From positions 390,001 to 422,000 of the forward strand of contig JBAZVE010000001.1 of the NCBI GenBank assembly GCA_041661045.1: a stretch of 32,000 nucleotides of DNA, in the 5' to 3' direction. Position numbers and translations under genes: made by a program. Positions 12,124 to 28,433 of this stretch are shown piece by piece; the stretch's first letter is position 1, and the number at the start of each line of letters is the position of its first letter. This DNA is from Candidatus Saccharimonadota bacterium. Its GTDB lineage: Bacteria > Patescibacteriota > Gracilibacteria > UBA1369 > 2-02-FULL-48-14. The notes beneath the pieces are model-generated. The model saw only the letters and a list, made by a program, of their open reading frames with translations. It had not been told where the DNA came from and did not search any database.

Positions 12124-12188
12124 AGGTGAAACTTGCACGCGGGCTAAAAAACTGCTTAAATGGCGAAGAAATGCACTAACCCCACGCT

Positions 12189-12626
12189 ATGCAAGTCAAA
12201 GCACTCATTCAATCCCCCATTGTCCGCGAAGTTCTTATTTTTGCCGGACTCCTGGGCGCTGCTCTTTTGGTTTCTCAACTCCTGCCCGGCATGAGTTTTG
12301 CAAACGGTTTTATTGATGACTCCGACAACCTCGACATCGTTGGTGATGCCACCAATAATGAAGGAGATCTTAAGGAGCTCATCAAAGATATTCTCAATTA
12401 CTTCCTTGGATTCTTGGGCTTTGTGGCTACCGTGATGGTGATTTACGGCGGTGTGCTCTACATTACAGATGGAGGAAGCGACGAAAATGTTGGTAAGGCT
12501 AAAAAGATTTTGATGTATGCCGCCATTGGTATCATCCTCATCTTGATCTCCTTCGCACTGGTCAACACCATCTTGGGTGCCGGACTTGGTGGAGGCGCAA
12601 GCACAAGTACCACAACCGTGAACTGA
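12189..12626 (+). CDS. T4SS-pilin-like (TrbC/VirB2-like) small secreted membrane protein
   Basis: Signal peptide followed by two TM helices separated by a short charged loop (VMVIYGGVLYITDGGSDENVGKAKKILMYAAIGIILILISFALVNTILG). This architecture is typical of the CPR-abundant pilin family. Confidence 0.6.
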   Translation: MQVKALIQSPIVREVLIFAGLLGAALLVSQLLPGMSFANGFIDDSDNLDIVGDATNNEGDLKELIKDILNYFLGFLGFVATVMVIYGGVLYITDGGSDENVGKAKKILMYAAIGIILILISFALVNTILGAGLGGGASTSTTTVN

Positions 12627-12637
12627 GTTTTAAACAA

Positions 12638-13147
12638 TTAAGTAAGAGCCGGGACTTGAATTTTCCCGGCTTTTTCTTTTTCCTCCGGTTCCACCGTGAG
12701 CACAATGGCTTTTTCGGTGACCGCCGAGATGTCGCTGTAGTCAAATGTCCGCTTGTCCCATTCCATCCACAGAAATTTTTTAGAAACCTCAATGGAGAGG
12801 AGAAAGCTGGTGTTCGTGTCCAAGCAAAAATCGCGCACGCGGCCCAAGCTCTGCCCATTTTTTGCCAGCACGCGCTTGTTGTTCAAAAAGGTCCGGCGCA
12901 AACCAAATTCTTGAATGCGTAAAATTTCCAGGGGAGTCGTGAACGCTTCGGGCCCACTCACTCGTATGTAGTCTTTATTCCACTGCTCGATGTCCACCGG
13001 CACTACCATTTTGGAATAACCAAGCAAGAGCCCAATGATTTGCCCCGTTTCCGGATGCATAAAAACGCCCGTCACAAAGCCAAAAGGCCTATCTTCTTCC
13101 GAAGAAATCACGGCAAGCCCGTCGAGTTGGGACCAGTGGAGCTTCAT
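12638..13147 (-). CDS. PRC-barrel domain protein (two repeats)
   Basis: LDGLAVISSEEDRPFGFVTGVFMHPETGQIIGLLLG and NKRVLAKNGQSLGRVRDFCLDTNTSFLLSIEVS resemble PRC-barrel segments. Confidence 0.55.
   Translation of the reverse strand: MKLHWSQLDGLAVISSEEDRPFGFVTGVFMHPETGQIIGLLLGYSKMVVPVDIEQWNKDYIRVSGPEAFTTPLEILRIQEFGLRRTFLNNKRVLAKNGQSLGRVRDFCLDTNTSFLLSIEVSKKFLWMEWDKRTFDYSDISAVTEKAIVLTVEPEEKEKAGKIQVPALT
12647..12680 (+). terminator. rho-independent terminator of the pilin-like gene
   Basis: 8-bp stem AGCCGGGA/TCCCGGCT (12647-12654 / 12664-12671) followed by TTTTCTTTTT. Embedded in the 3' end of the convergent PRC-barrel ORF. Confidence 0.6.
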
Positions 13148-13197
13148 CGAGGAACATTATACTTTCGGACCCTTGAAAAACAAAGGGCGAAACACCC

Positions 13198-13226
13198 TTG
13201 TCGCTGAGGCTGTTTCATGGTACAAT
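13198..13226 (+). promoter_or_regulatory. extended -10 promoter candidate
   Basis: TTGTCG (13198-13203), 17-nt spacer, TGgTACAAT (-10 at 13221-13226), 15 nt upstream of ATG 13242. Confidence 0.5.
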
Positions 13227-13241
13227 TATTGGATTTAATTT

Positions 13242-13547
13242 ATGCCAATGGGACTCAGCGCTAACGATGTCATCGCTCTCGCACAAGAAACCAAAGCCCT
13301 TTCCAAAGAGCAGTTGGAGCGCATTTTAGAGGTGGCTCCCACCATGAGCGCCGCGGATTTGGAAGAACTCAAAAAAATGATCCTGGCCGTGCAAGCTGCC
13401 GAAATTGAAGGTATGAAAAAAGAACTCGAACTTCGTCAAAAAGTCGCCGCCGCCTACTCCGAGTGGCAGGCCGACAAAGCCCGCGCCACCCTCCAAACCC
13501 AAGAGGGTGCCGTCGCTCGCGAAGACCAAGCTCAATTTGAAATATGA
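13242..13547 (+). CDS. hypothetical coiled-coil protein (101 aa)
   Basis: ATG ORF, helical and rich in E/K/A. Its stop overlaps the next start (ATGA at 13544-13547). Confidence 0.55.
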   Translation: MPMGLSANDVIALAQETKALSKEQLERILEVAPTMSAADLEELKKMILAVQAAEIEGMKKELELRQKVAAAYSEWQADKARATLQTQEGAVAREDQAQFEI

Positions 13548-15241
13548 GTTACGCCGGTGCTGGTGGATTTGTCTCTCCTGAGGCTTATCATGATTTCGTT
13601 CCCATGCAACGACTCGCTTCGGACTTGAAAGAACTTTCAGGCAAAAATTACCCTCCTGAATTTCTTAAAAAGTTTACCGAAGAGAATCCTGAGGTTTCTG
13701 CTGCGCTACAAAAGATTGTAGCGTCACAAAAAGAGAACCGAACCGCTGACCCTGCTTTGGCCGAGGCCTTAAAGGTTTTGGATGGAGATTTGGATTTTGT
13801 CCAACTCCAAAAATACAATGCCATTCTTAAGGATGTCGGTTTTACTGAAGGAGGCTTGGTTGAGGTTTTTAACGGTAGGGTTCTTATCACCATACCTTGT
13901 GATGTTGGTGGACCCTTTAAAATCTCGTCCATGGGTTCCCATGGCTGGTTATTGGATGGAGTGTCTTACACTGCAGATCGTGATAATTTGGCTTTATTAA
14001 CACAGGCGCTTATTGATGCAAAGTCACTCAAATTCACTTTAGAGAAGGCAAGGGAAAAGCGTTTGCCACAAACCGAGGTTTTATTTGAGAAGGCCATGTT
14101 GCCCAAAGCGCGCCTGTGGGCTTCTGTCGTTGTAAATCCAATCTTTGCTTTGGAACGCGCGGTCCAGAGGGGGTTTTCACTACGCCCTGATGCTCCAGAG
14201 CGTTTACGCGCTATGGGACAAAAGCGTTGGATCAATAGCTTTTCGGGCGGAGCCGGTTCTTCCTCAGAGGTCTCGTCTGACGAACCTCAAGCGACAGAGG
14301 GAGTGGCTCGAACAGGAGCGTCAAGTGTGGAACGGAAAGAAGTCCGACAAGAGGAAGCAGCCTTTGCGGCGAAAATGCAGGGGGAGGGGTGGAAAAAGTA
14401 TGCGACTTTAACGGATAATGCTGAAGAAGGTGGGAGTATTGTTGTGAAACTTCCTACCGACAAAAATGAGCCTAACTACTCTGACTATACAAACAGCCGT
14501 ATTCACGACTTTTTTGGTGGCAAATCACCGGTCAAGGTGCTCTCGGCTTCAGAGATGGAGACCTACGATATTACTGTGAATAGTAAACCTGTTGAATGGG
14601 GCCCTGATACAGACTACCCAGATGGAACTTGGCTTGATGCAAGCACCAAAACTCGGGTTTGGGCAGAGAATGGGACCAAGATTGAATGGAAGAAAAAGGG
14701 TCTTGTAAGTGCGGAAGCTCCGGCGGCTGCAGCAGGAGGGGCAGTGGCTGCAAATGCTCCTACAAAGGTTGAGTTTTTGGATGATGGAGGTGCAGATGCC
14801 TCTGCAGAAAAAATTCGGGAACGGATGGAAAAGTCCTTTTCTTATTTGACGCGGACAGATGGAGTTTTGACACAGAAAGCTACGGCCTTGAAAGCAGTTA
14901 AAGAGAAAATCGGGAAAAAATCTCTTTTTAGGACTGCAAGTAAGGCTGAAGATCTTGATTTGGAGGCACTTACCTTGGAGAGAGACATTCGACTGCTTAA
15001 AGATGACCGGGCTAGGGTCATTGCCTTTGTTAGAGAACAAACAAACACTCCTCTCTACGCCACTTTGGCCGGGAATGTGGCCTTGGCGGATTTGAGCAGA
15101 TGGGGACTGGAAAATCCACACGAAGTAACCGAAGTCATGATCGCCTCAACCACTCCTGAGGCTCCCACTAAAGTAGAGATTGGCACCGGGCCAGCCGTGC
15201 TTGCTTCGAATGATACGGCATCGGCTTCTACTGATGCCTGA
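13544..15241 (+). CDS. hypothetical protein (565 aa)
   Basis: Long ORF translationally coupled to the 101-aa gene. No recognisable motif. Confidence 0.6.
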   Translation: MSYAGAGGFVSPEAYHDFVPMQRLASDLKELSGKNYPPEFLKKFTEENPEVSAALQKIVASQKENRTADPALAEALKVLDGDLDFVQLQKYNAILKDVGFTEGGLVEVFNGRVLITIPCDVGGPFKISSMGSHGWLLDGVSYTADRDNLALLTQALIDAKSLKFTLEKAREKRLPQTEVLFEKAMLPKARLWASVVVNPIFALERAVQRGFSLRPDAPERLRAMGQKRWINSFSGGAGSSSEVSSDEPQATEGVARTGASSVERKEVRQEEAAFAAKMQGEGWKKYATLTDNAEEGGSIVVKLPTDKNEPNYSDYTNSRIHDFFGGKSPVKVLSASEMETYDITVNSKPVEWGPDTDYPDGTWLDASTKTRVWAENGTKIEWKKKGLVSAEAPAAAAGGAVAANAPTKVEFLDDGGADASAEKIRERMEKSFSYLTRTDGVLTQKATALKAVKEKIGKKSLFRTASKAEDLDLEALTLERDIRLLKDDRARVIAFVREQTNTPLYATLAGNVALADLSRWGLENPHEVTEVMIASTTPEAPTKVEIGTGPAVLASNDTASASTDA

Positions 15242-15256
15242 AGCTTTGCTCGTTAA

Positions 15257-15278
15257 CTGTGCGCACGCACAGATTTTG
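15257..15278 (+). terminator. rho-independent terminator candidate
   Basis: Stem CTGTGC/GCACAG with loop GCAC, then ATTTT. A second small hairpin GGCTT-AAGA-AAGCC followed by a T-rich tract sits at about 15290-15315. Confidence 0.5.
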
Positions 15279-15363
15279 CTTCGATTTGTGGCTTAAGAAA
15301 GCCGTTTAATTTTTGGGAATGGCTCAATGGGCGCTGTTTGTGCTTGTAAGTTTCTCGGCGAGA

Positions 15364-15392
15364 TTGACCCGGGCGGGAGTTTTGCTTATACT
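15364..15392 (+). promoter_or_regulatory. promoter candidate for tRNA-Pro
   Basis: TTGACC (15364-15369), 17-nt spacer, TATACT (15387-15392), 27 nt upstream of the tRNA. Confidence 0.55.
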
Positions 15393-15418
15393 CCGCTTTG
15401 CTCTTAGGAGCTTAGCGT

Positions 15419-15495
15419 CGGGGTATAGCAAAGTTGGCTATTGCGCTCGGTTTGGGACCGAGAGGCCGCAGGTTCGAGTCCTGCTACCCCGACCA
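15419..15495 (+). tRNA. tRNA-Pro (anticodon UGG), CCA encoded
   Basis: Cloverleaf read by eye: acceptor CGGGGTA/TACCCCG, D stem GCAA/TTGC, anticodon stem CTCGG/CCGAG with loop TTTGGGA, T arm GCAGG-TTCGAGT-CCTGC, discriminator A plus CCA. 77 nt. Confidence 0.93.
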
Positions 15496-17087
15496 TTTAG
15501 GACTTTTGCATGTTCTTCAAACTCCTTGAATGGAGAATTTAGGCTGTACGAAGCCACTTTCTTTTCTTTCACGGTGAAGTTCGAGAAGAGTTTTTTGATT
15601 AAGTAGTCTTTCTTTTCTAAAACTTTCTCATTTCGCAACCGTAAGCCAAAATCTTTGAAAAGTTCTACAAATTGATCGTAACTTAAAACCTCGGCGTTTT
15701 GCTTTTTCTTTTTCTCTTGGAGAGTTGCGAGCTGGGACTCTAACCCCTCCTGTTGCGTTAAGAGCTTGGCTATTTCCGATTGGTAAAATTCTCTCACCAA
15801 CTTGTCTTTTACTTCTTCCGCCATATTCATTCTGCTTTGAATGCGCCCGCTCAATTGTTTGAGACTTTGGCGTGTTGACTGCTCTTGGGAAGTCAACTCC
15901 TCAACTGTTTTCCTATTCACCCTATGCATTTCTTTTTGATAGTGCTGATAAATTTTTGCCGAGGTGAAATCATGCTGATCAAGAAATGTATCTACAAAAT
16001 CTGTGATGATATGTGCGCGCACGGATTTGTTATGAAACGAACATTTAGGAGTTGTGCATCGGTAGAAAAAATACCGTTTGTCAGCTTTGACCTTGTGGGT
16101 TATATTCGGCACCATCTTTTTTTCACAATGACCGCAGTAAACAAGGCCTCTTAGAAAGTCAGCATGAACCGACCCTTCTTTGAGGTATCGCCCTCTTAAA
16201 CGGAAGCTACGCTCCACCTTTTGCATCTCATTTAACCGTATGAACTCTTCGGGTGTAATCATCGGGCAAAACCCACTTGCTTCTACAAGGTTAATGACCC
16301 TATCCCCGTAGCGGAGTATCCCCGCATAAATCGGGTCTTTTATAAACTCGGAGACTCTTTTCTTATTCATCGTATAAAGCTCATCCCCTCGTAATGTCGA
16401 TTTTTTGTAATGATTCTGATTTAGGTATTCGGCTATCTCATCAAGGGACTTTGCATCTAAACGCATTTTTAATGCATTTTGGATTAGGTCAAAATTGGTT
16501 CCGTTGGGATGCAGCTCTTGATTTTCATCTTTACGGTATCCATGCTTATTTCTCCCCAAATACTTTCCTTCGTTGGAACTTCTGTTAACACCTCGCAGTA
16601 CGCTCTGACTCAACGCCTCTGAATACTGTTTAGCAATTACGAATGCAATACCCAGCATAACCTTGCCAGAGACGCTATTCTCAAAGTTAAATGCTACAAA
16701 TTTCAAATCTCTGATCACCCCCTTGTCTAGAAGATCAATTACCTCTCCCGCATCTTTCATGTTTCTGGAGAGCCGATCAGGATGCCAAGCTAAAATTGCA
16801 TCGTATTTCCCAGCTTTAATGTCTGCAATCATCTGATTGAACTTTGGCCGTGATTCTGAATTCTTGGCCGAAGCCGCTTCTTGAATTTCTTCTACTACGT
16901 TAAGACCCAGTTTTCTTTGCAAGATACGGGCTTCATCCACTTGATCACCAATTGAACGCACCTGCTCACCATCTTCTTCTCTGGACTTGCGGGCATACAA
17001 TACATAGCGTGGAGGTTTTTCCTCTACCCCTTCTGATTCTGGAGTCACAAAACTTTTTAAGAACCGTTCAAAATCTTTTAATTCCAT
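15438..17087 (-). CDS. large serine recombinase (integrase)
   Basis: N-terminal resolvase domain (YVLYARKSREEDGEQVRSIGDQ...HPDRLSRN). Central recombinase domain. Zinc ribbon CGHC...YRCTTPKC. C-terminal coiled coil. The last 19 codons are antisense to tRNA-Pro. Confidence 0.9.
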   Translation of the reverse strand: MELKDFERFLKSFVTPESEGVEEKPPRYVLYARKSREEDGEQVRSIGDQVDEARILQRKLGLNVVEEIQEAASAKNSESRPKFNQMIADIKAGKYDAILAWHPDRLSRNMKDAGEVIDLLDKGVIRDLKFVAFNFENSVSGKVMLGIAFVIAKQYSEALSQSVLRGVNRSSNEGKYLGRNKHGYRKDENQELHPNGTNFDLIQNALKMRLDAKSLDEIAEYLNQNHYKKSTLRGDELYTMNKKRVSEFIKDPIYAGILRYGDRVINLVEASGFCPMITPEEFIRLNEMQKVERSFRLRGRYLKEGSVHADFLRGLVYCGHCEKKMVPNITHKVKADKRYFFYRCTTPKCSFHNKSVRAHIITDFVDTFLDQHDFTSAKIYQHYQKEMHRVNRKTVEELTSQEQSTRQSLKQLSGRIQSRMNMAEEVKDKLVREFYQSEIAKLLTQQEGLESQLATLQEKKKKQNAEVLSYDQFVELFKDFGLRLRNEKVLEKKDYLIKKLFSNFTVKEKKVASYSLNSPFKEFEEHAKVLNGRGSRTRTCGLSVPNRAQ

Positions 17088-17125
17088 GCCTTTATATTAT
17101 TCCACTGCCTCGCATACGGAAATGT

Positions 17126-17566
17126 TCATATTTGTTTACGTTCTTCACTTTGCCTGACTGCTTGAATGATACTGATGTTCACTGGATAGGTTGGCATCGT
17201 TGGTTCTTGAAACTTTGGATTAAACATACCGATATGTTTTCCAAGTAGTTCTAAGGCCTTCAATGCTCCGTAGGCATCTATCGTCCACTGTTCGGCACTT
17301 CTTCCCACTGTCTTTCTTTCAAGGCATTTTAGGACGATTTCTTTGAGATTTTCGATGATATAAGTTTCGTCGTAAAGAGCTTGGCGTTTCCTCGCTTCAA
17401 AATGTTTCTTTAGACCTGTTTGAATATATGGGTCGTCCATGAGTAGAGAGCCACGGGTTCTTGCTCCATTTTCGCTATAGCCTGCCCGTACAGCGGCTTT
17501 GGCTTGGTTGAAGTCTTTTAGATACTCTTCTACGAAAAGCTCTTTTCTGACTGTGGTCGTGCTCAT
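17126..17566 (-). CDS. phage terminase small subunit (Terminase_2-like)
   Basis: RKELFVEEYLKDFNQAKAAVRAGYSENGARTRGSLLMDDPYIQ matches the characteristic TerS N-terminus (F..EYL.d.Na..AA.rAGYS...A). Confidence 0.85.
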   Translation of the reverse strand: MSTTTVRKELFVEEYLKDFNQAKAAVRAGYSENGARTRGSLLMDDPYIQTGLKKHFEARKRQALYDETYIIENLKEIVLKCLERKTVGRSAEQWTIDAYGALKALELLGKHIGMFNPKFQEPTMPTYPVNISIIQAVRQSEERKQI

Positions 17567-17616
17567 AACAGTGTCGGTAAAATCACTGATATTTTACGCT
17601 TCTGAACTGGGAAAGT

Positions 17617-18144
17617 TTACTCCGTCTGTATGTCCACATACTCCCAAGCTCCAAAATCGGACGGGTCTCCACCTAAGAAACGGAGTTGTATTGTGTAGTA
17701 AGTCCGAATCATTGCCCCAAAGCCATTTTGTGAGTCCACATAGGAGTAAATCGTATAAACATCTGCCTCCTTACTCACCGTGTAGGGGTCGTCAAACATG
17801 GTTGAAGGGAACTCTGCTGTGGTTGGAGATTTGAGCGTAGCCTCCACAAAGTGTTTGGCCATTAAGTAAGCCTCAAAGTCCGATGCCTCTGTTCTGAATT
17901 CTGGTGTGCTACTTGGTTGATTTACTCCCATTTCATCAAGAGCCTGTCCAAGCATGCCTAGAAAGAAAATAACCAGAAAGATCACGAGAGGGACGGCACA
18001 GCAGTTGGAAATACTTTGCTTTTGTCCACAGTGTGAACACTTGGTGGCCTTCTTTGGTATCTCTTGAAGACAAGCCTTACAAGTTTTCTTTGTTTCGTGG
18101 GTAGTCATGGGATAGGGAAATAGATTTGCCTCACTATATCCCAT
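17617..18144 (-). CDS. zinc-ribbon, single-pass membrane protein with extracytoplasmic domain
   Basis: CKACLQEIPKKATKCSHCGQ zinc ribbon, then TM CCAVPLVIFLVIFFLGML, then C-terminal KSPTTAEFP...YVDSQNGFGAMIRTYY domain. Confidence 0.6.
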   Translation of the reverse strand: MGYSEANLFPYPMTTHETKKTCKACLQEIPKKATKCSHCGQKQSISNCCAVPLVIFLVIFFLGMLGQALDEMGVNQPSSTPEFRTEASDFEAYLMAKHFVEATLKSPTTAEFPSTMFDDPYTVSKEADVYTIYSYVDSQNGFGAMIRTYYTIQLRFLGGDPSDFGAWEYVDIQTE

Positions 18145-18181
18145 TTTGGGTTATCCGAAAAAGGGATTTAGCATTCTTTCC

Positions 18182-18397
18182 ATGAATAGCCTCCACTCTA
18201 AGGAGTACCGTGACCTCATAGATAAACTCACCAAAGCTCGCAGAGATGCAGGTTTTACGCAGGTTCAAGTTGCAGACCTTTTAGGGAAACCACAGTCTTT
18301 CGTTTCCAAGGTTGAAACTTTCCAGAGACGGATTGATGTGCTTGAATTAAAGAAGTTGGCTAAGGTTTATAAAAAGAACCCCAACGACTTTCTCTAA
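18182..18397 (+). CDS. XRE-family helix-turn-helix transcriptional regulator
   Basis: FTQVQVADLLGKPQSFVSKVETFQRRIDVLELKKLAKVY is a canonical HTH_3 segment. ATG 18182 preferred over TTG 18146. Divergent from the Zn-ribbon gene. Confidence 0.8.
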   Translation: MNSLHSKEYRDLIDKLTKARRDAGFTQVQVADLLGKPQSFVSKVETFQRRIDVLELKKLAKVYKKNPNDFL

Positions 18398-18405
18398 AAA
18401 TTCTC

Positions 18406-19038
18406 ATGGCAAATCTCTTTGTTCTGGCGTTGCTACTATCTCTCGTCGCTCTACCAGTGGGTTTAATCAAGCCAGCGGTTTTTCAGAAGATCGTCAAAAA
18501 ACTGATGGGCAAGGATGCGACTCGCAAAAATGTCCTTGGTAGTCTGGCATCCCTTGCTTTGGTGAGCTTCATTGGTATTGGCGTGACTGCTCCAACTCCT
18601 GTTCCAGAAAGTGATGTGGAAGTTACTTCAACCGAAGAAGTTCAAGCGATTGAAATGGAGAAGCCGACTTTGGAAGAAACTGTTGAGAGTGAAGCTATAA
18701 CAAGTGTCAGTTCCGAATCAAAGGTCGAAGAACAGGTTCAAACTACACAGCCAGCGGTGAGTGAATCAGCTACGATAGTCCAACCAGAAACCACAACAAC
18801 GACCCAATCTTCCAGTGAAGAAACTTATACTGTGGAGGAGGTGCAAGAGCCTATTTATGAAGAACCCGAACCCACTTCTTGGTACACTTGCAGTTCAAAT
18901 ACTTATAATTGTTCCAGTTTTTCTACTCACGCCGAAGCCCAGTCTGTTTATGATGGGTGCTTAGCCCAAGTGGGCTATGATGTGCATGGATTGGAGGGAA
19001 ATGATAACGATGGATTGGCGTGTGAAAGTTTACCCTGA
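18406..19038 (+). CDS. membrane-anchored Excalibur calcium-binding-domain protein
   Basis: N-terminal TM, E/T/S-rich linker, C-terminal CSSFSTHAEAQSVYDGC...HGLEGNDNDGLACESL (Excalibur DxDxDGxxCE motif). Confidence 0.75.
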   Translation: MANLFVLALLLSLVALPVGLIKPAVFQKIVKKLMGKDATRKNVLGSLASLALVSFIGIGVTAPTPVPESDVEVTSTEEVQAIEMEKPTLEETVESEAITSVSSESKVEEQVQTTQPAVSESATIVQPETTTTTQSSSEETYTVEEVQEPIYEEPEPTSWYTCSSNTYNCSSFSTHAEAQSVYDGCLAQVGYDVHGLEGNDNDGLACESLP

Positions 19039-19043
19039 AAACA

Positions 19044-19814
19044 ATGGAGCTTGAGTTATGTCCATGCTCGTCAGGCTTGCCCTATAAAGATTGCTGTTTT
19101 TTGAAGTTTGATGCAAATGGGAATCGTTTATTTGACACTGGCCATAGGCGTGGCGATGCCGACGGCAACTGGTATCCGATGCCAAATATCCAGATTGCGA
19201 TGACCCTTGGGGTTAAAGTTAATGATAAGTTTCGTGAGCACGCAGAGTCGATTGTTAAAAGGTCTAAACTGCCACAAGAGAGGTACACAGATTTTGTTAA
19301 TGCGTTTGCCCTCTTTCTTGCTTCATACAGTGGGTTTATCCAAGAAGTCTCAAAGCCTCATGGTACAGGTGCATCTTTTAGTGTCGACTCGATAGAAGGC
19401 AGAGAAACTTGGAGAAAGTTTCTTGTTAATGGAAGAATCCTTATCGATTTCATTGGTAGGCATACATGTGCCGCATTGAACCTTAAACAACCGCTTGGAA
19501 AAACTTTCAATCTAGACTCCATTGACTCTTTGATAAAGATTTTGGGAAACGAAGGAAGAAAACGCCCAGAATTGCTGCTCATCAAGGATAAACTGCTCCA
19601 AATCAGACCTTCTCTTAAAACCTTCATCGATTTAAGAAACCTCGAAAAGTTTTCTGGAGACACAATCGTGGAATTCCCCGCAGTTCACGAAAAGGGTATT
19701 ACAAAGGATGGCGTAGTGAGGACTCAAGAAGCAACATACCCAATGGTTCACACTGCTGAAAGTGCTTATAAAGCCATATGCCTGCTCGTAGATTTGCTAC
19801 TGGGCATTTCTTGA
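19044..19814 (+). CDS. SEC-C metal-binding-motif protein of unknown function
   Basis: N-terminal CPCSSGLPYKDCC (SEC-C motif); the rest is unrecognised. Its 3' end overlaps the convergent 183-aa gene by 18 nt. Confidence 0.6.
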   Translation: MELELCPCSSGLPYKDCCFLKFDANGNRLFDTGHRRGDADGNWYPMPNIQIAMTLGVKVNDKFREHAESIVKRSKLPQERYTDFVNAFALFLASYSGFIQEVSKPHGTGASFSVDSIEGRETWRKFLVNGRILIDFIGRHTCAALNLKQPLGKTFNLDSIDSLIKILGNEGRKRPELLLIKDKLLQIRPSLKTFIDLRNLEKFSGDTIVEFPAVHEKGITKDGVVRTQEATYPMVHTAESAYKAICLLVDLLLGIS

Positions 19815-20348
19815 AAGATGTTCAATCCAATCAATCACGCTTCCGAAGGCTCCGCCTAGTTCTTCGGCAAAAGTTAAAAGGGTGAACAAAATATAGCAGG
19901 CAAGAAACAAGTAAGGGACGAAGCCTTCCAGATGAGAAAAAGGTAAGTATCTCCCAGCATTTCTCCCTTTTTCAAGAATGCTCCATTCAGTTCTATAGAG
20001 TGCTAGGGGAAGTTTTTCTTCCACTTGATGGAGCACTGTAAATTTGCCCGTGTTCATTTGTCGATAGGAAAGAATTGTCCTAGCCCATACGAAACAAATG
20101 AGAACGCCCAGAATCAAGACCAATAATTCAATGTTTGCTGAAAACTCCTCCTTAACAAAAAACCCCAACGCCGTCATCAAGAAGGTGTTTAACGAAAGAA
20201 AAAAGGTGTTAGCCCGTTCTCTCCTTTCACTGATTTTATCTATTCCCTCAACATAAATTCTATACTGCTCAAGAACGTGCTCTCGATACTGATGCCCGTA
20301 CTTCTTTTGGTCAGCAGAAAATAGTTTGATTTTATTCTTGTTCCTCAT
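19797..20348 (-). CDS. small multi-TM protein, putative membrane effector (SLATT-like by architecture)
   Basis: About 45-aa charged N-terminal helix (YREHVLEQYRIYVEGIDKISERRERAN), then hydrophobic segments NTFFLSLNTFLMTALGFFV, IELLVLILGVLICFVWARTIL and GFVPYLFLACYILFTLLTF. Start lies 3 nt after the TIR-like gene's stop. Confidence 0.6.
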   Translation of the reverse strand: MRNKNKIKLFSADQKKYGHQYREHVLEQYRIYVEGIDKISERRERANTFFLSLNTFLMTALGFFVKEEFSANIELLVLILGVLICFVWARTILSYRQMNTGKFTVLHQVEEKLPLALYRTEWSILEKGRNAGRYLPFSHLEGFVPYLFLACYILFTLLTFAEELGGAFGSVIDWIEHLSRNAQ

Positions 20349-20351
20349 GCT

Positions 20352-20729
20352 TTATCGATTGCCATTGAGTAAAAGCCCCACATTTTCCCAAGTCCAGCGA
20401 TATCTTTTAAGTCCTTCGATAGCAGGACAAGTTTTTTCCTTGTATCCAACGATACTTACAACTGGGACACCAGCCTCTCTTGCCATTTGGATTTCAGCTT
20501 TTACGCCAGAACAAGTGTGAGTTTTCTCTCCCAAGATCACGATTACTAAATCACACTTTTTGATCTTGATTAGACATTGTTCCTTCCAAGTTCTTTCATC
20601 CCAAGGTACTTTCACTGACCAGTCTTCTAGCTCAAAGGGTGTATCAGAGTTACGCCCATGTGCTACGAAAGCATCCCTTAAAAACTGGTCATTCTCGAAA
20701 TCAAAGCTAATAAATACTTTTTTCTTCAT
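20352..20729 (-). CDS. stand-alone TIR-like domain protein (DUF1863 / ThsB-like)
   Basis: KKVFISFDFENDQFLRDAF at the N-terminus, CDLVIVILGEKTHTCSGVKAEIQMAREAGVPVVSIV later. This pattern is typical of the MTH538/TIR-like family. Confidence 0.8.
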   Translation of the reverse strand: MKKKVFISFDFENDQFLRDAFVAHGRNSDTPFELEDWSVKVPWDERTWKEQCLIKIKKCDLVIVILGEKTHTCSGVKAEIQMAREAGVPVVSIVGYKEKTCPAIEGLKRYRWTWENVGLLLNGNR

Positions 20730-20809
20730 GCAACGAACGTTAGCACAAGTTATGATTCAACAAAAGAAGGACTCAACCAAGTATGTAGGTTCGATGAACG
20801 TCGCCCTTA

Positions 20810-20977
20810 TTACTTTCTTCGTCCACTGAAACCGAGATTGACCACATTCCCATCTCTAGCAACGGCCTGATTGGGGCTTAAATTACTAGGAGTTGAAGAA
20901 GGTTTACTCGATGTTGGAGTTCCTTGTCCTTGGAGAGCTTGAGCTACATCTGTTAGTGCGTCTTTTCTTCCAACCAT
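20810..20977 (-). CDS. possible small ORF (55 aa, low-complexity)
   Basis: ATG..TAA ORF below the track's 60-aa cutoff, co-directional with and upstream of the TIR-like gene. Product MVGRKDALTDVAQALQGQGTPTSSKPSSTPSN... No RBS seen. Confidence 0.2.
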   Translation of the reverse strand: MVGRKDALTDVAQALQGQGTPTSSKPSSTPSNLSPNQAVARDGNVVNLGFSGRRK

Positions 20978-20995
20978 ATGAATTTTTAAGGATGG

Positions 20996-21169
20996 CTACA
21001 TCGTAACATCATTTAGTTTTCCAGTACACACGAGCAGGTCACCCCTCAAGAATTGCTCCATTTCGATGTTGAACTTATCGAGGCTTGCGTAGGTACGTTC
21101 AAGTAGTTCAAGATTTTGAAGTTCTACTTTAGTTCCTATCCCCCGACCATCTTGACTGGTACAGTACAT
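20996..21169 (-). CDS. possible small ORF (57 aa, helical)
   Basis: ATG..TAG ORF, product MYCTSQDGRGIGTKVELQNLELLERTYASLDKFNIEMEQFLRGDLLVCTGKLNDVTM. Only 31 nt from the divergent ATP-grasp start, which argues against it. Confidence 0.2.
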   Translation of the reverse strand: MYCTSQDGRGIGTKVELQNLELLERTYASLDKFNIEMEQFLRGDLLVCTGKLNDVTM

Positions 21170-21200
21170 TATTGTATTATGCCCGTCTTAAGCGAGGGCT

Positions 21201-22256
21201 ATGAAAATTTCAATACCCAGTGGTTTTGGTGAAAGAGATTTGGTCTCTCCATGGACAATGCTGTTGGGAGATGATCAAGATGTGACTTGGAACTCTACAA
21301 TGAGGTTTGCTGAACAGATGACTGCTGCCGAAAGGTGGCTGCGAAAAGTCCTTGAAGGGCTCAGTGATGTCCAAGTGATTGAAGGGGCCTGGGATAGTAG
21401 TGATGTATCCATAAGCTCTCCCTTTAAGCCAGATGACTTAGTAGACCAAACCATATTCGAAGGAACAACTATAAGGAAACCACGAACAGTTCCTTTACAT
21501 GAGTTTTTGCAACACCCTCGATATCCTGTTGTAGCAAAGGACACAAAAGCTAACGAAGGTCACTGGAAATTTCTCATCAAAGATGAGAGTGGTTTGGATA
21601 CATTTGTGAATTTTTTGAGAACCAAAGGGTTCCCTGTCAGTCAGTTTGTCTTTCAAGATTTTATTCAGCAAGACAGCCATCGTTCTTATGTTAGCTCTTA
21701 TAGAGTCCTTGTTGGTGCAACGGGTCAAATATTTGCCGCGGCTTTGATATGTAGAGATAAATCAAGCAAAGCCTCTGTTTTACCAGATGATCCTTTTTCT
21801 GAACTGACGCAGCCAGACTCAGATTGGTTTTTAGGGGGGCAGGAGTTTTGCTCGAATGTAGCACAAGGAGGCAGAATATTTCCTCTTGAGCCTGCTAGAC
21901 AACCTGATCGACCAGTGGATTGGGAAGAGGTTTTAAAAGACCATAGTATTGATACGCGTAGGCCAGTATTACCAGAGCAAATTGAAGAAGTTTCAAAGAG
22001 AGTTGGACGACTTGTAGCACCGCGAACTGACCTAGTTTTGGGAGTCGATTTCATGACCGATCAAAGTGGAAATCATTGGTACTTAGAAACGAACTCAGGC
22101 CCTGGACTGGCAACATATCTCTATGCTCATAAGCGTGGCTTTGCTCAGACCTTACATCTTGACCCTTTCAAAGCCATAACGGTTGAGGCCTTGTTTGCTT
22201 TGGGAGTAGATCTAAGGTCTCAATATCCATGGAGAAACAAACCTTACCAATTTTAA
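21201..22256 (+). CDS. ATP-grasp fold protein (RimK-like ligase family)
   Basis: VVAKDTKANEGHWKFLIKDESG..., FVFQDFIQQ, YRVLVGATGQIFAAALICR, SNVAQGGRIFPL and LGVDFMTDQSGNHWYLETNSGPGL follow the ATP-grasp order of motifs. Confidence 0.7.
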   Translation: MKISIPSGFGERDLVSPWTMLLGDDQDVTWNSTMRFAEQMTAAERWLRKVLEGLSDVQVIEGAWDSSDVSISSPFKPDDLVDQTIFEGTTIRKPRTVPLHEFLQHPRYPVVAKDTKANEGHWKFLIKDESGLDTFVNFLRTKGFPVSQFVFQDFIQQDSHRSYVSSYRVLVGATGQIFAAALICRDKSSKASVLPDDPFSELTQPDSDWFLGGQEFCSNVAQGGRIFPLEPARQPDRPVDWEEVLKDHSIDTRRPVLPEQIEEVSKRVGRLVAPRTDLVLGVDFMTDQSGNHWYLETNSGPGLATYLYAHKRGFAQTLHLDPFKAITVEALFALGVDLRSQYPWRNKPYQF

Positions 22257-22267
22257 AAGATACGGCG

Positions 22268-22816
22268 CTAGCAGATATAAAACAAAGCCGGAATCCCAAA
22301 TCCTAAGATGAGCTCAAGTGGTTTGTGTCTTTTTAGGAGTAGGCGTGAGTAAACGACGAGTGGAATCGTAAGAAAAATCAGCGGAGATAAGTTGAAATCT
22401 TGAACGAGCGCAAAACACAAAATTGTGATTAAAGCGACATGGATGCTCACTTTAATTTTAAAGTTAAAGAGAATGAGGAGTGTGGCTATTGCCAGTAATC
22501 GGCTAAAATCATAGAAAATTTCTTTTGTTGAGAACAAATACAGATAAATAATCGAGAGCATTAACCCAATTAGAGTAGCATAGTAGAGTGGGTATCTTTG
22601 AATGCGTTTACTGACATCAAAGTCCGATATCCTTTTCGTTTTGTATAGGTAAAGAAAGTATAAGAACGGCATTACAAACGATAGTCCCAGTACTGCCAAA
22701 AAGGATGATAATTGATCCCACTTAAAGTAAACAACTGTGAGCAAAGGAAATACAAAAACTGGATGTGCAATGAACGAGATTGCTTCGCAGATTTTGACTT
22801 TTAGAGCTTTTTTCAT
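22268..22816 (-). CDS. PAP2-superfamily-like polytopic membrane protein
   Basis: Five to six TM segments. KVSIHVA resembles PAP2 motif C2 (SGH). YSRLLLKRHKPLELILG fits C3 SR-x5-H-x3-(D/E). Motif C1 is weak. Very AT-rich. Confidence 0.5.
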   Translation of the reverse strand: MKKALKVKICEAISFIAHPVFVFPLLTVVYFKWDQLSSFLAVLGLSFVMPFLYFLYLYKTKRISDFDVSKRIQRYPLYYATLIGLMLSIIYLYLFSTKEIFYDFSRLLAIATLLILFNFKIKVSIHVALITILCFALVQDFNLSPLIFLTIPLVVYSRLLLKRHKPLELILGFGIPALFYIC

Positions 22817-22865
22817 ATTGATTACAGTTTAACTATTTTTACAGGAAATCAGCTCTGAATAAAAC

Positions 22866-22958
22866 CTACTCTTTGCCACTGAAGCTGAGCAGCATGCCGA
22901 TGACGCTTGCGAGGATACTGACGATCCCAAGAATGAATTGTAGAAGTTGATTAGACAT
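22866..22958 (-). CDS. possible 30-aa hydrophobic peptide
   Basis: Product MSNQLLQFILGIVSILASVIGMLLSFSGKE. Its ATG directly follows the terminator U-run and no RBS is seen. Confidence 0.2.
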   Translation of the reverse strand: MSNQLLQFILGIVSILASVIGMLLSFSGKE

Positions 22959-22995
22959 AAAAAAACGGTTACAGGATTTAAATCGGTGTAACCGT
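22959..22995 (-). terminator. rho-independent terminator (arm 2:arm 3 of an attenuator-like structure)
   Basis: On minus-strand RNA, ACGGUUACA (22995-22987) pairs with UGUAACCGU (22973-22965), followed by U6-7 (22964-22959). Confidence 0.6.
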
Positions 22996-23025
22996 CTTTA
23001 AGTATGTTAAACGACTGGTTACACC
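22985..23025 (-). promoter_or_regulatory. alternative (antiterminator) helix, arm 1:arm 2
   Basis: GGUGUAACC (23025-23017) is perfectly complementary to GGUUACACC (22993-22985). It shares 7 nt with the terminator's 5' arm, so the two helices are mutually exclusive. Confidence 0.5.
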
Positions 23026-23106
23026 CTATCTTGAGTAAAAGTGTGGCTTCCAGTGATAACTTTTTGAGGTTTCCTCTACCCGAATTGTTTGTTTGAAAAG
23101 GTTCAT
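23026..23106 (-). CDS. possible 26-aa leader peptide ORF
   Basis: Product MNLFKQTIRVEETSKSYHWKPHFYSR. Its TAG (23026-23028) directly abuts arm 1 of the antiterminator. Weak RBS. Confidence 0.3.
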   Translation of the reverse strand: MNLFKQTIRVEETSKSYHWKPHFYSR

Positions 23107-23127
23107 ACTTTTTCTAAAGTACCCTGC

Positions 23128-23156
23128 ATTATCCACTATTTGGGTCTTGGAGTCAA
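23128..23156 (-). promoter_or_regulatory. sigma70-like promoter candidate for the leader/PAP2 unit
   Basis: Minus strand: TTGACT (23156-23151), 17-nt spacer, GATAAT (23133-23128), about 22 nt upstream of leader ATG 23106. Confidence 0.5.
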
Positions 23157-23172
23157 ATTCTGCGGGGAGGCT

Positions 23173-23784
23173 TCACTCACACACGCCCCAGAGGCCTTTG
23201 TTGGCGTCCTGGGCTTCTTGTTCGAGGTTTTCGAAGTGGGTGCGGTCGGTCACGGGGTACTGCTCGGGGAAGGTGGCGTAGCCTTCACGCAAAAGGGCAT
23301 CGTTGAGGCGCAGGAAGCTGCCGTCTTCTTGGAGCACATCGATGTAGCGGAGTTTGCGGCCATAGGGATCTTCGTCTTCATTGGCGGGGTCGGCGGTGAG
23401 GCGGACGGCGCGGTTCTTTAAAAATTCGGTGGTGAAAAGAGCGGCTTCGTAACCGTAACATTCGGCGGTGGAATCGGGTCCATTGATTTCGTTGGTGTCC
23501 ACGGCCAGGAGGCGAACCTGGAAAAGTTCGCGGTTGGGGCCTGAGATCAGGAGGGTATCGCCGTCGAGTATGGCCACCACCCAGTAAAGAGACTCATCCG
23601 TGAGAGAAAGAAGGGCATCTTTTTGAGGATAGGTTTCTTCCTTATCCAGCTGTTCCTCAATCTCTAAAGCGTATTTCTCGGGCCAGGTCTGTTCTTGCAA
23701 GGTGTCCGCGGAGGCCACGGGGGTCTTTTGCAGGTTCAGTGCTCCGAGGATGGTGAGGATGAATTGTGCGAGACTGTCGAGCAT
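23173..23784 (-). CDS. secreted thermonuclease (staphylococcal nuclease/SNase homologue)
   Basis: N-terminal hydrophobic signal. ILDGDTLLI, VRLLAVDTNE, ECYGYEA, DPYGRKLRYI and ALLREGYA are classic SNase motifs. Confidence 0.85.
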   Translation of the reverse strand: MLDSLAQFILTILGALNLQKTPVASADTLQEQTWPEKYALEIEEQLDKEETYPQKDALLSLTDESLYWVVAILDGDTLLISGPNRELFQVRLLAVDTNEINGPDSTAECYGYEAALFTTEFLKNRAVRLTADPANEDEDPYGRKLRYIDVLQEDGSFLRLNDALLREGYATFPEQYPVTDRTHFENLEQEAQDANKGLWGVCE

Positions 23785-23868
23785 TTCTTGAGGTAAGAAG
23801 GATGTCGCTTACGCGACCTTATGGTTAGGCACTGAAGTGCCTGGAAGGAGGGTATATTGACATGAAAC

Positions 23869-28432: not shown

Positions 28433-28433
28433 T

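Follow-up and report, generated by a model that had tools for sequence, protein, structure and literature searches.

A probable tRNA-Pro-linked integrative island of a CPR chromosome, with a large serine recombinase, an orphan small terminase and a defence-like gene pair

Phage satellites of the PICI/SaPI type are small integrated islands bounded on one side by an integrase; they encode two divergent regulators and a small terminase of their own, they are devoid of structural and lysis genes, and their variable slots hold defence-type cargo; in all these respects the locus described here resembles them. Characterised large serine recombinases (LSRs), to our knowledge, have protein-coding genes or intergenic sites as targets. 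For the recognition of satellites, SatelliteFinder accepts a PICI at four of five core components and discards "Type C" elements (PMC10085698), and the PICMIs (PMC10803314), which are minimalist satellites of Vibrionaceae, reportedly have genes for integrase, excisionase and primase. The window, by which we mean the whole 32-kb stretch of DNA that was analysed, likely harbours an integrative genomic island of 7.5-7.7 kb (about 15496 to 22960-23170) that begins directly after the CCA end of tRNA-Pro(TGG), and we consider an LSR-driven, tRNA-linked integrative island with a defence-like TIR + 8xMP pair to be its probable nature. The borders are defined by the following features:

15419..15495, plus strand: tRNA-Pro(TGG), which anchors the island in the chromosome and presumably forms its attB side (ARAGORN and Rfam)
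22866..22958, minus strand: 30-codon ORF that would encode a hydrophobic peptide and is the last gene that could still belong to the island
22965..22995, minus strand: stable hairpin (z = -4.3) with seven consecutive T behind it on the minus strand, probably the terminator of the core SNase gene
23173..23784, minus strand: SNase-family nuclease, with which the conserved chromosome resumes on the right; its counterpart in the closest related genome (L102) is syntenic and 68% identical

The base composition separates the block from its surroundings, with a GC content of 0.39-0.44 across 15500-23000 (about 0.42) versus 0.47-0.55 in the flanks at 8000-15500 and 23000-32000 (about 0.49). The right border is placed only approximately, between 22958 and 23172, because the SNase and MurL genes are syntenic in L102 and because of the terminator-like hairpin at 22965-22995; this distal end showed neither direct or inverted repeats nor a displaced piece of the tRNA that could mark an att site. 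The flanks hold chromosomal genes (MurB, a MurL-MurD fusion, YbeY, GuaA) whose nearest relatives come from metagenome-assembled genomes of Peribacteria, Gracilibacteria and other Patescibacteria, and the chromosome is thus that of a Peribacteria-like CPR bacterium with a tiny genome. Matches to TerL, portal, capsid, tail or lysis families were absent from the sizeable ORFs of the island and of the rest of the window (Pfam, PHROGs). An earlier note, made from the letters of this DNA, had described an AT-richer block behind tRNA-Pro in a CPR-type host, with an LSR, a Terminase_2-type small terminase and a divergent Zn-ribbon/XRE pair, and had seen no TerL, portal, capsid or tail gene. All of this was borne out by ARAGORN, Rfam, the GC profile, Pfam and PHROGs; the absence of further phage genes extends over the sizeable ORFs of the entire 32 kb, and the island is not part of a visible prophage.

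The recombinase gene occupies the left end of the island and runs towards the tRNA:

15438..17087, minus strand: LSR of 549 aa, with Resolvase, Recombinase and Zn_ribbon_recom domains
15522..15535, no strand assigned: weak hairpin (CTCC-6 nt-GGAG), 27-40 nt past the CCA end of the tRNA

All three domain matches exceed the Pfam cut-offs, the protein also matches the integrase family phrog_95 (4.5e-67), and the catalytic residues R33, K34 and S35, the latter being the catalytic serine, are intact and invariant. Its identity to the LSRs of isolated phages is no more than 20-25%, and it scores far below the NCBIfam cut-offs for XisF and CcrB/C. Its final 19 codons (58 nt) lie antisense across the 3' half of tRNA-Pro, which itself is identical in 77 of 77 positions to the LSR-free tRNA-Pro of three Peribacteria genomes. 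The termination of the LSR within the tRNA is a point that the earlier note did not contain, and it is the rule across the LSR family. The weak hairpin falls within the codons of the conserved LSR motif LNSPF, and relatives have strong hairpins at the equivalent position. The LSR presumably recombines a site of the element with an attB that comprises the tRNA 3' end and the sequence just downstream, and it probably mobilises the island.

The LSR belongs to a large clade in metagenome-assembled CPR genomes and unassigned metagenome contigs, in which the recombinase gene converges on a tRNA and terminates inside it; the metagenomic loci bear no taxonomy, and the extent across CPR bacteria rests on the names of NCBI-derived homologues. 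A convergent tRNA overlaps or abuts the LSR stop codon in 52 of the 71 assessable loci, namely those that have the LSR C-terminus and stop codon, and 8 of the 19 loci that have no such tRNA end less than 100 nt downstream. The overlap is exactly 58 nt in 17 loci, as in the window, with Pro, Val or Gly tRNAs, and many of 120 database homologues have C-termini that are tRNA-antisense peptides such as GRGxRTRTCDLxVPN or GIEP. Across different genomes the clade is found at no fewer than 17 tRNA identities, a spread that demands repeated site-specific insertion. The islands are small, roughly 5-8 kb, and bear accessory genes, among them those for restriction and toxin-antitoxin functions (an MmeI restriction-modification enzyme, methylases, Zeta toxin, SocA_Panacea, DUF4352, XRE regulators). 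In 17 loci, no terminase, portal or capsid family occurred among the families listed, which are the 25 most frequent or strongest of 71-80, so that a rare structural gene could be missed; a Terminase_2 TerS homologue was found in none of about 95 related LSR loci. The island of the window belongs to a large family that apparently has not been described before.

Upstream of the LSR, the island contains a set of backbone genes that recur elsewhere:

17126..17566, minus strand: small terminase subunit TerS (Terminase_2), 146 aa, full length, without a TerL partner
17617..18144, minus strand: Zn-ribbon protein with one transmembrane helix (phrog_13160)
18146..18397, plus strand: XRE-type HTH regulator (HTH_3), divergent from the Zn-ribbon gene; its true start is likely 18182
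18406..19038, plus strand: p210, membrane-anchored, with a Cys-rich C-terminal domain, 62% identical in L199
20810..20977, minus strand: p55, a small protein with homologues in L199 (62%), L102 and L002
20996..21169, minus strand: p57, a small protein with homologues in L199 (70%) and L102 (45%)

TerS matches Terminase_2 with 74.5 bits (cut-off 26.1) over profile positions 3-136 of 141, and its gene precedes the co-oriented LSR gene by 38 nt. The neighbouring protein has a CxxC...CxxC zinc ribbon followed by the transmembrane helix. Two other contigs, L002 and L199, share p57, p55, the XRE regulator (75-87% identical), the Zn-ribbon protein (65-71%) and TerS with the window, the p57 candidate of L002 having been identified only by eye, and L199 also has p210. 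This conserved backbone marks a sub-family to which the island belongs. In the window the backbone terminates with the LSR, whereas in L002 TerS is followed by unrelated genes and no LSR, and one of the two contigs has chromosomal neighbours unlike those of the window. Purifying selection acts on TerS, the Zn-ribbon gene and XRE, with pN/pS values of 0.28, 0.23 and 0.12, respectively, and dN/dS of about 0.1 at a dS of about 2, which is near saturation. The selection on the backbone indicates that TerS is functional, a working gene that was acquired from the packaging genes of a phage. Outside the sub-family, its nearest relatives (40-43% identical) adjoin large terminases in phage contigs, and a compatible TerL therefore plausibly exists. 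The divergent promoter between the XRE and Zn-ribbon genes may control a Zn-ribbon-TerS-LSR operon.

The variable cargo occupies slots between these backbone genes:

19044..19814, plus strand: 256-aa protein with an N-terminal SEC-C metal-binding motif
19797..20348, minus strand: 8xMP-family membrane protein (PF24838, 8e-38), presumably the effector that works with the TIR protein
20352..20729, minus strand: ThsB-like TIR-domain protein (Pfam ThsB_TIR, 31.3 bits, cut-off 21.2; PADLOC ThsB, 8e-9)
21201..22256, plus strand: 351-aa protein with weak, below-threshold ATP-grasp (YheCD/RimK-like) matches
22268..22816, minus strand: 182-aa polytopic membrane protein with no homologue in L102

p57 is the first gene of a p57-p55-TIR-8xMP operon. 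The TIR and 8xMP genes look like a Thoeris-like abortive-infection pair and may act in defence; no PADLOC model matches the 8xMP partner.

The most serious alternative is that proposed in the earlier note, a helper-dependent phage satellite. Infection by or induction of a helper would open the XRE switch, the LSR would excise the island, TerS would recruit the helper TerL to a pac site of the island so that island DNA enters helper capsids, and the TIR + 8xMP pair would shield the host in the way known for the defence cargo of PICIs and P4-like elements. What stands of this proposal is the combination of an intact integrase, a full-length orphan TerS and a compact divergent regulator pair within about 7.6 kb of a CPR island. 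TerS is moreover a backbone gene in three elements, none of which has an adjoining TerL, it has remained under purifying selection across a divergence of dS about 2, its closest outside relatives sit beside TerL, and the cargo slots between conserved genes are as in known satellites; tail and holin genes, both "forbidden" in the PICI model (PMC10085698), are absent. Steering a helper TerL onto island DNA is the single most likely use of TerS. The proposal does not hold up where further satellite functions are concerned: backbone and cargo lack replication genes, a primase-replicase included, genes for capsid morphogenesis or of the Ppi/Rpp type are missing, no protein is homologous to AlpA, MerR or Stl, TerS precedes the integrase in an order that differs from that of PICIs, and the wider LSR family does without TerS. 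With 2-3 of the five PICI core components, the island falls below the 4/5 accepted by SatelliteFinder, at the "Type C" level that its authors discard (PMC10085698), and a search of IMG/VR returned no helper or related phage, nor was an excised form seen. As there is no replicon and no other hijack gene, we rate helper dependence as low; true satellite behaviour of the island is possible but doubtful, and the satellite reading as a whole is likewise tentative.

A somewhat less probable alternative is that the locus is no longer mobile, a long-resident and possibly domesticated LSR at tRNA-Pro with a variable hotspot behind it, whose genes are turned over by other means. The comparison of the same site in relatives bears on this. 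In L102, the order is MurB ... tRNA-Pro-LSR (62% identical)-a different 7-kb cargo-SNase-MurL, and the LSR dN of 0.30 compares with 0.23-0.25 for core genes. The recombinase has thus diverged about as much as the core genes, and its residence at tRNA-Pro may predate the split of the two genomes. In L042 and L037, two relatives without the LSR, other genes adjoin an identical tRNA-Pro, and the region behind the same tRNA-Pro is likewise variable in LSR-free relatives, with accessory genes such as toxin-antitoxin pairs and those for a Fic protein and an AAA ATPase; in L109, a 5.8-kb island lies between tandem tRNA-Pro genes. The similarity between occupied and LSR-free sites ends right after the CCA, and the presence of the LSR at tRNA-Pro varies among relatives. 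A strict empty site, an excision junction or a circular form, which the earlier note had named as checks, was not recovered, and the missing att repeats and tRNA fragment also fit an immobile locus. The earlier note had further reasoned that the same genes in a conserved context with no empty site would speak against its satellite-like element; in part this is the situation, as L102 shares the LSR, p57 and p55 at the site, but the remaining island genes, TerS included, differ, and distant relatives have no LSR. Against immobility stand the many tRNA identities at which the LSR clade occurs, the intact catalytic residues of the LSR, and the joint travel of p57, p55, p210, XRE, Zn-ribbon protein and TerS on other contigs, one of them with different chromosomal neighbours.

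The LSR-driven integrative island is also to be preferred over a remnant of an LSR-carrying temperate CPR phage that was deleted from TerL to the lysis genes and retains a functionless TerS, which we regard as quite improbable. The XRE regulator, membrane protein and TerS do resemble the regulatory/packaging boundary of a temperate phage, two IMG/VR contigs classed as viral encode LSRs of the window's clade, and in L200 a Zn-ribbon homologue adjoins a methylase-TerS-like-TerL cluster that also has no portal or capsid gene, so truncated packaging modules exist in CPR genomes. But TerS is an orphan in L002 and probably in L199 as well, a pattern that favours a single old loss after which the gene was kept; the TerS ORF is not truncated relative to its profile, and the 17 LSR-family loci bear no phage structural genes among the families listed. 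TerS as the decayed leftover of an ordinary prophage, which the earlier note had kept as an option, is at odds with the low dN/dS of TerS, Zn-ribbon gene and XRE and with its backbone role in both contigs. Equally improbable is that the TerS-like protein is a non-packaging DNA-binding factor of the island, one that serves the LSR as a recombination directionality factor (RDF) or regulator, or one that acts as a decoy and poisons the terminase of invading phages: its co-orientation with the LSR just 38 nt downstream, the other defence-like cargo, and the HTH proteins adjoining the LSR in L104 and L111, whose sole PHROG matches are N-terminal HTH regions of small terminases, would suit such a role, but the Terminase_2 match goes beyond the HTH and includes the oligomerisation core, TerS of L002 has no LSR next to it, such a protein is absent from most LSR islands, and we know of no TerS-family RDF or decoy.

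Among known systems, PICIs and SaPIs differ from the LSR-driven island by their replication, capsid-morphogenesis and regulatory genes, and by a TerS at the far end instead of directly upstream of the integrase; the island in turn has a serine recombinase, a CPR host and no known helper phage. PICMIs are similar in their very small size, reduced gene content and lack of capsid-remodelling genes, whereas our island has TerS in place of a replication gene. Thoeris also places a ThsB-like TIR gene beside a putative effector gene in one operon, but its ThsA effector has SIR2/SLOG or Macro domains, and the partner here is an 8xMP-family membrane protein. Like tyrosine-integrase islands and prophages of the P4 type, the island starts at a tRNA 3' end with the integrase gene adjoining, and the same tRNA is a hotspot across relatives; unlike them, it uses a serine recombinase, has no duplicated tRNA 3' segment at its far end, and leaves the tRNA intact with the junction at or just after the CCA. 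With the characterised LSR elements (phiC31, Bxb1, A118, SPbeta prophages, SCCmec Ccr, XisF) it shares the Resolvase, Recombinase and Zn-ribbon architecture, an integrase gene that adjoins one element end, and ends without a long direct repeat, as expected for a 2-bp crossover. The clade of the window differs from these elements in being tied to tRNA 3' ends, with an ORF that stops inside the tRNA.

Downstream of a tRNA-Pro gene, the GC content drops from about 0.47–0.55 in the flanks to 0.39–0.44 over 15500–23000, and it is this stretch that an earlier note, made from the sequence alone, had read as a phage-satellite-like element. The observation itself was right, as the tRNA-Pro, the lower-GC block, a large serine recombinase (LSR), a small terminase (TerS) and a divergent Zn-ribbon/XRE pair all lie where they had been placed. 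The stated lack of a large terminase (TerL), portal, capsid or tail gene was also borne out, since searches with Pfam and PHROGs detected no family for a TerL, a portal, a capsid, a tail or lysis, either within the island or over the 24 kb of the window that lie outside it. A PHROGs search for hidden phage genes among the window ORFs without a Pfam match likewise gave none.

Features of the island and of the chromosomal genes that follow it
15419–15495, plus strand: tRNA-Pro(TGG) (ARAGORN, Rfam)
15438–17087, minus strand: LSR, 549 aa (Resolvase, Recombinase and Zn_ribbon_recom, each above the Pfam cut-off; phrog_95, 4.5e-67)
17126–17566, minus strand: TerS (Terminase_2, 74.5 bits, profile positions 3–136 of 141)
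17617–18144, minus strand: Zn-ribbon protein with one transmembrane helix (phrog_13160)
18146–18397, plus strand: XRE HTH regulator, divergent from the Zn-ribbon gene (HTH_3)
18406–19038, plus strand: p210, a 210-aa membrane-anchored protein (no Pfam family)
19044–19814, plus strand: SEC-C-motif protein
21169–19797, minus strand: operon p57-p55-TIR-8xMP (ThsB_TIR; PADLOC ThsB, 8e-9; PF24838, 8e-38)
21201–22256, plus strand: ATP-grasp-like protein, weak (YheCD and RimK matches below threshold)
22268–22816, minus strand: polytopic membrane protein (no significant family)
22866–22958, minus strand: 30-codon hydrophobic ORF (translation only)
23173–23784, minus strand: SNase-family nuclease, chromosomal, the next gene after the island
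23869–26415: MurL-MurD fusion, 848 aa, chromosomal, after the SNase gene

The host belongs to the CPR, as the best relatives of the flanking MurL-MurD protein are encoded in metagenome-assembled genomes of Gracilibacteria, Peribacteria and other Patescibacteria. The TerS gene is recorded on a 1.3 Mb contig. The 848-aa fusion, in which a MurL-type N-terminal part is linked to a MurD-like Mur ligase, is widespread in Patescibacteria genomes; in L102, the closest related genome, the counterpart of its N-terminal part is annotated MurL_N plus MurL_epimerase_C. A resemblance of p210 to an Excalibur domain had no support from Pfam. Outside the island, a second stretch of lower GC content (0.41–0.45) at 1–7800 includes genes for a beta-helix protein and for an O-antigen-ligase-like membrane protein (Wzy_C) as well as several ORFs without a family, and is probably a surface-glycan region. 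An ORF of 145 aa at 12189–12626, with MurB on one side and a PRC-barrel protein on the other, carries the annotation T4SS_pilin (PF18895) in the Logan contig L198 that matches it.

The recombinase has the catalytic-serine domain (Resolvase, 1.3e-20) as well as the Recombinase and zinc-ribbon domains (PF07508, 32.3 bits with a cut-off of 21.1; PF13408, 36.5 bits with a cut-off of 25.3) of a large serine recombinase, and R33, K34 and S35 as well as the cysteines C318, C321, C344 and C349 are invariant in a 30-sequence alignment. It is just 20–25% identical to LSRs of isolated phages and scores far under the XisF and CcrB/C cut-offs of NCBIfam. Hundreds of homologues with 40–62% identity exist, and those with a named source belong to CPR phyla, for example Magasanikbacteria, Daviesbacteria, CPR2 and Paceibacterota. 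The ORF stops at 15438, and its last 19 codons and stop codon thus lie antisense over the 3' 58 nt of the tRNA-Pro gene (15438–15495). This is a trait of the family: many homologues have C-termini such as GRGxRTRTCDLxVPN, GGTRTLN or GIEP, which are antisense translations of tRNA T-arms and acceptor stems. We compiled 96 LSR loci, 93 of them fetched with the 30-member family alignment and 3 by exact-protein look-up of LSR homologues. The C-terminus and stop codon of the LSR were present in 71 of these loci, of which 52 have a convergent tRNA gene that overlaps or abuts the LSR stop, and 8 of the other 19 have less than 100 nt of sequence downstream. CPR genomes contain, by our own estimate, only about one tRNA gene per 20–30 kb, and the association is therefore not a matter of chance. 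At least 17 tRNA identities occur at the LSR stops (Pro, Gly, Val, Leu, Glu, Gln, Ser, His, Trp, Ile, Thr, Tyr, Asp, Met, Lys and others). In 17 loci, all with tRNA-Pro, tRNA-Val or tRNA-Gly, the overlap is exactly 58 nt, and the same D-arm position of the tRNA gives the LSR stop codon. These data suggest that a large LSR clade of CPR/Patescibacteria probably uses tRNA genes as integration sites. The recombinase may recognise the T-arm and acceptor end, both of which are conserved, and this would account for the switches among tRNA identities.

The comparison with related genomes agrees with this view. L102 has the gene order MurB-...-tRNA-Pro-LSR-[about 7 kb]-SNase-MurL-SIMPL with an LSR that is 62% identical to that of the window and likewise overlaps the tRNA by 58 nt. 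Its island shares p57 and p55 homologues, whereas the other genes differ (DUF6864, membrane proteins, an HExxH protein), and it contains no TerS, Zn-ribbon homologue or XRE. Three more distant Peribacteria relatives (L042, L043, L037) have the same MurB-side synteny and a tRNA-Pro that is identical to that of the window at 77 of 77 positions, but they lack the LSR, and behind the tRNA-Pro in L042 and L037 there are RelE/ParE-like and PIN-type toxin-antitoxin pairs, a Fic protein, an AAA ATPase and a 588-aa membrane protein. The similarity of the occupied and the LSR-free sites ends directly past the CCA, and at this position the LSR-free sites have a terminator hairpin. In a further locus of the family (L109:72-6067), tandem tRNA-Pro(TGG) and tRNA-Pro(CGG) genes enclose an LSR island of 5.8 kb, and this island is a natural size estimate for a minimal family member. 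Taken together, the comparisons with L102, the LSR-free Peribacteria and L109 point to site-specific insertion at the tRNA 3' end and to a hotspot behind tRNA-Pro.

Some further features of these sites can be added. Despite the fully identical tRNA-Pro, the MurL proteins of the three LSR-free relatives are just about 55% identical to that of the window, while L102, the closer genome (MurL 69%), has a differing tRNA-Pro sequence that resembles that of L064. The stretch from tRNA-Pro to MurL is variable in LSR-free relatives too (L037:12382-19951, L042:12408-15942), where it also contains a cytidine-deaminase-like gene and paralogous 180–190-aa proteins. Each of the tandem tRNA genes of L109 has a TATAAT box 17 nt upstream. 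In eight loci of the family (L111, L119, L122, L123, L110, L114, L186, L104), a hairpin is found at a fixed distance of 22–47 nt past the tRNA CCA; these hairpins have up to 13 bp and z down to −4.7, are often followed by a T-run, and lie within codons of the conserved LSR motif LNxPF. The corresponding hairpin of the window (15522–15535) is weak, with a 4-bp stem. Because LSR-free sites have their hairpin directly after the CCA, the post-tRNA hairpin could replace a tRNA terminator that was displaced by the insertion; alternatively, it could be a recombinase site or a regulatory site.

The recombinase may have resided at this tRNA since before the genomes of the window and L102 split, as its divergence (dN 0.30) about equals that of the core genes (MurL 0.25, SNase 0.23). 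We searched the distal end for repeats, either direct or inverted, and for a displaced piece of the tRNA; the scores stayed at chance level in the window, L102 and 29 other loci, and the best tRNA-like match in 17001–23900 scored 21, as compared to 19.6 ± 2.1 for shuffled sequences. Ends without repeats are expected, since the crossover of serine recombinases comprises 2 bp, and without repeats at the far end the right border stays approximate, between 22958 and 23172. The SNase gene is probably terminated by a stable hairpin at 22965–22995, which has a T-run on the minus strand. The earlier note had proposed to look for an empty tRNA-Pro site, and no strict empty site, excision junction or excised form was recovered; the LSR-free relatives are distant and have other genes behind the tRNA. 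In a genome scan with MurL, relatives with usable flanks were at most 55% identical, and a 71% identical relative (L022) is truncated by the end of its contig. The upstream 565-aa protein had no relatives in JGI metagenomes, and exact-protein look-ups with this protein and the SNase returned only contigs of the source sample. Two Logan contigs of that sample (L198, L001) end inside the tRNA, at window positions 15447 and 15467, 19 nt apart. We considered and rejected an excision polymorphism, since these breaks are most likely explained by tRNA k-mers that are shared with paralogous tRNA-Pro genes or with other genomes.

What do such islands carry? We scanned 122 ORFs on the upstream side of the LSR, at a distance of up to 9 kb, in 17 of the closest loci. 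The matches included XRE, DUF4352, MmeI-type restriction-modification, DNA methylase, Zeta toxin, SocA_Panacea, SMR transporter and tyrosine integrase families, and no terminase, portal or capsid family was among the top 25 families listed. The idea that TerS is a general partner of the LSR had to be rejected, as none of about 95 LSR loci gave a TerS hit when 120 Terminase_2 proteins were used as tblastn queries; small HTH proteins beside the LSR in two loci (L104, L111) match only the HTH part of TerS profiles. Based on these cargo families and the TerS-free loci, the LSR family is one of small accessory and defence islands and not of prophages, and TerS is no regular part of it. A clear example of defence cargo is the tRNA-Val LSR island of L104 (L104:6546-11681, GCA_041752875.1), with an MmeI-type restriction-modification enzyme and a SocA_Panacea antitoxin-like gene. 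In the window, the TIR protein matches Thoeris ThsB (ThsB_TIR, 31.3 bits with a cut-off of 21.2; PADLOC ThsB, 8.2e-9), but the Thoeris effector ThsA (SIR2/SLOG or Macro) is absent, and the neighbour is the 8xMP membrane protein PF24838, which has no PADLOC match. The defence-like pair of TIR and 8xMP is cargo, with a presumed role in defence. The genes p57 and p55 precede TIR and 8xMP in the window (20352–21169) and DUF6864 plus a 190-aa membrane protein in L102 (L102:5590-6973), which suggests that p57 and p55 may form a conserved pair, of leader or regulator type, that precedes exchangeable cassettes of a sensor and a membrane effector.

The TerS of the window is full-length, as the match to Terminase_2 (cut-off 26.1 bits; phrog_51, 5e-26) includes the DNA-binding part and the oligomerisation core, and it has about 31% identity to annotated TerS proteins of isolated phages over 88–95% of its length. 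The only close relative, with 71% identity, is encoded on contig L002 behind a Zn-ribbon gene (70%) and an XRE gene (87%), and no TerL partner exists beside it or in the window. On a third contig, L199, the genes follow one another as in the window: p57 (70%), p55 (62%), a 224-aa gene, p210 (62%), XRE (75%), Zn-ribbon (65%), a 264-aa insert, and a TerS start, of which only the first residues precede the contig end (a weak match, E = 0.005, at the right position). Small ORFs of L002 resemble p57 and p55 by eye, and tblastn at E ≤ 0.01 missed them. The three elements thus have, as judged from these alignments, a common backbone of p57, p55, XRE, Zn-ribbon and TerS, to which p210 can be added for the window and L199, while the L002 contig ends short of the p210 position; variable genes lie between the backbone genes, and none of the three elements shows a TerL. 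Between the window and L002, pN/pS is 0.28 for TerS, 0.23 for the Zn-ribbon protein and 0.12 for XRE, and dN/dS is about 0.1 with dS near saturation; TerS is therefore a maintained gene and not debris.

More distant TerS relatives (40–43% identity) adjoin large terminases in ordinary phage contigs, and a 43% identical homologue of the Zn-ribbon protein is found beside an orphan methylase-TerS-like-TerL cluster on contig L200 (L200:10001-13718; ENA ERZ25072999, 1.08 Mb). On the basis of these two neighbourhoods, the XRE/Zn-ribbon/TerS module clearly derives from phage packaging regions. In L200, the TerL (phrog_38, 7e-75) is not followed by a portal or capsid gene, purine-biosynthesis core genes lie on the other side of the cluster, and a shorter LSR is encoded 4 kb away.

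Is the element a helper-dependent phage satellite? In favor of this are the orphan TerS that is conserved in the backbone, the cargo slots between backbone genes, the defence-like cargo, and the absence of tail and holin genes. The definition of phage-inducible chromosomal islands (PICIs) in SatelliteFinder comprises five core components, namely an integrase, an alpA/merR/stl regulator, a primase-replicase, a capsid-morphogenesis gene and TerS; an element needs four or more of them to be accepted, three-component clusters are discarded as unreliable, and tail, holin or portal genes must be absent, whereas tyrosine and serine integrases are exchangeable (PMC10085698). The island has two of these components for sure, the LSR with its three Pfam domains and TerS. 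A third is doubtful, as the HTH_3-type XRE regulator has no AlpA or MerR-type match and is at best an analogue of the PICI regulation module. No replication family was detected in the ten largest island ORFs (Pfam, PHROGs, NCBIfam), and except for TerS there is no head-related PHROG or Pfam match that could indicate a capsid-morphogenesis or packaging-interference gene. The PICI quorum is thus missed, although the forbidden components are absent, and the interpretation of the earlier note is supported in part. The element could still behave like a satellite, but without a replicon the headful packaging of an excised circle of 7.6 kb would be seriously hampered, and packaging in situ would be needed. 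In addition, IMG/VR gave no helper or related phage. Close relatives of the TerS or the LSR were also missing there, and the best TerS match was 37% identical and from unrelated phage contigs. We regard a helper-dependent satellite as rather unlikely, although the element might be packaged in situ or after excision.

Two other explanations are considerably weaker. A decayed prophage would be in line with the origin of the module in packaging regions, but portal, capsid, tail and lysis genes were found nowhere in the window, and TerS is maintained; we consider this very unlikely. A non-packaging role of TerS, as recombination directionality factor, regulator or decoy, is similarly improbable; its full-length profile match is that of a small terminase. 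An inovirus prophage can be dismissed, as Pfam and PHROGs gave no pI/Zot-type ATPase or rolling-circle Rep protein in the ten largest island ORFs.

The best account is an integrative island that is probably driven by its LSR, belongs to a CPR-wide tRNA-linked family, and was presumably inserted at the CCA end of tRNA-Pro, where the crossover would be located. Its backbone contains the phage-derived XRE/Zn-ribbon/TerS module and its cargo the TIR and 8xMP pair; XRE would control the Zn-ribbon-TerS-LSR operon, and any use of TerS in packaging would be a further, hypothetical function. Two aspects are unusual and apparently undescribed, the LSR clade that is tied to tRNA 3' ends with an ORF that finishes within the tRNA, and the TerS-bearing, replicon-less CPR sub-family. 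Our literature search found nothing relevant on tRNA-targeting or tRNA-linked LSRs, CPR satellites or 8xMP, which is weak evidence for novelty as subscription papers were thinly covered. The main text of the large LSR catalogue does not mention tRNA (Durrant et al., PMC10083194). On balance, we give even chances to the view that the tRNA-targeting clade is truly undescribed. The joint claim, that there is such a clade and that the p57-p55-p210-XRE-Zn-TerS-LSR sub-family represents a minimal replicon-less CPR satellite, is improbable. If it were true, these would be the first tRNA-targeting LSR family and the first satellite in the CPR radiation.

Serine integrases are valued in genome engineering for their short sites and their independence of host factors, and few sequences in biology are more conserved than tRNA genes. 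A natural tRNA-targeting LSR clade, if true, would offer landing sites in nearly any genome. CPR bacteria have tiny genomes, and to our knowledge few mobile elements have been described in them; our findings indicate a common compact vehicle for defence genes in this group and a hotspot behind tRNA-Pro. Should the TerS sub-family be helper-dependent, phage satellites would extend to the CPR, and this satellite would be unusually minimal, as it has no replicon, which would make the minimum needs of a satellite testable.

An integrase island at a tRNA gene is as such ordinary. However, the classical tRNA-targeting islands use a tyrosine integrase, and their distal end repeats the 3' segment of the tRNA in direct orientation, whereas the island described here does without a detectable repeat and has an integrase of the serine type, and if its role is as proposed, tRNA targeting is not confined to tyrosine integrases.
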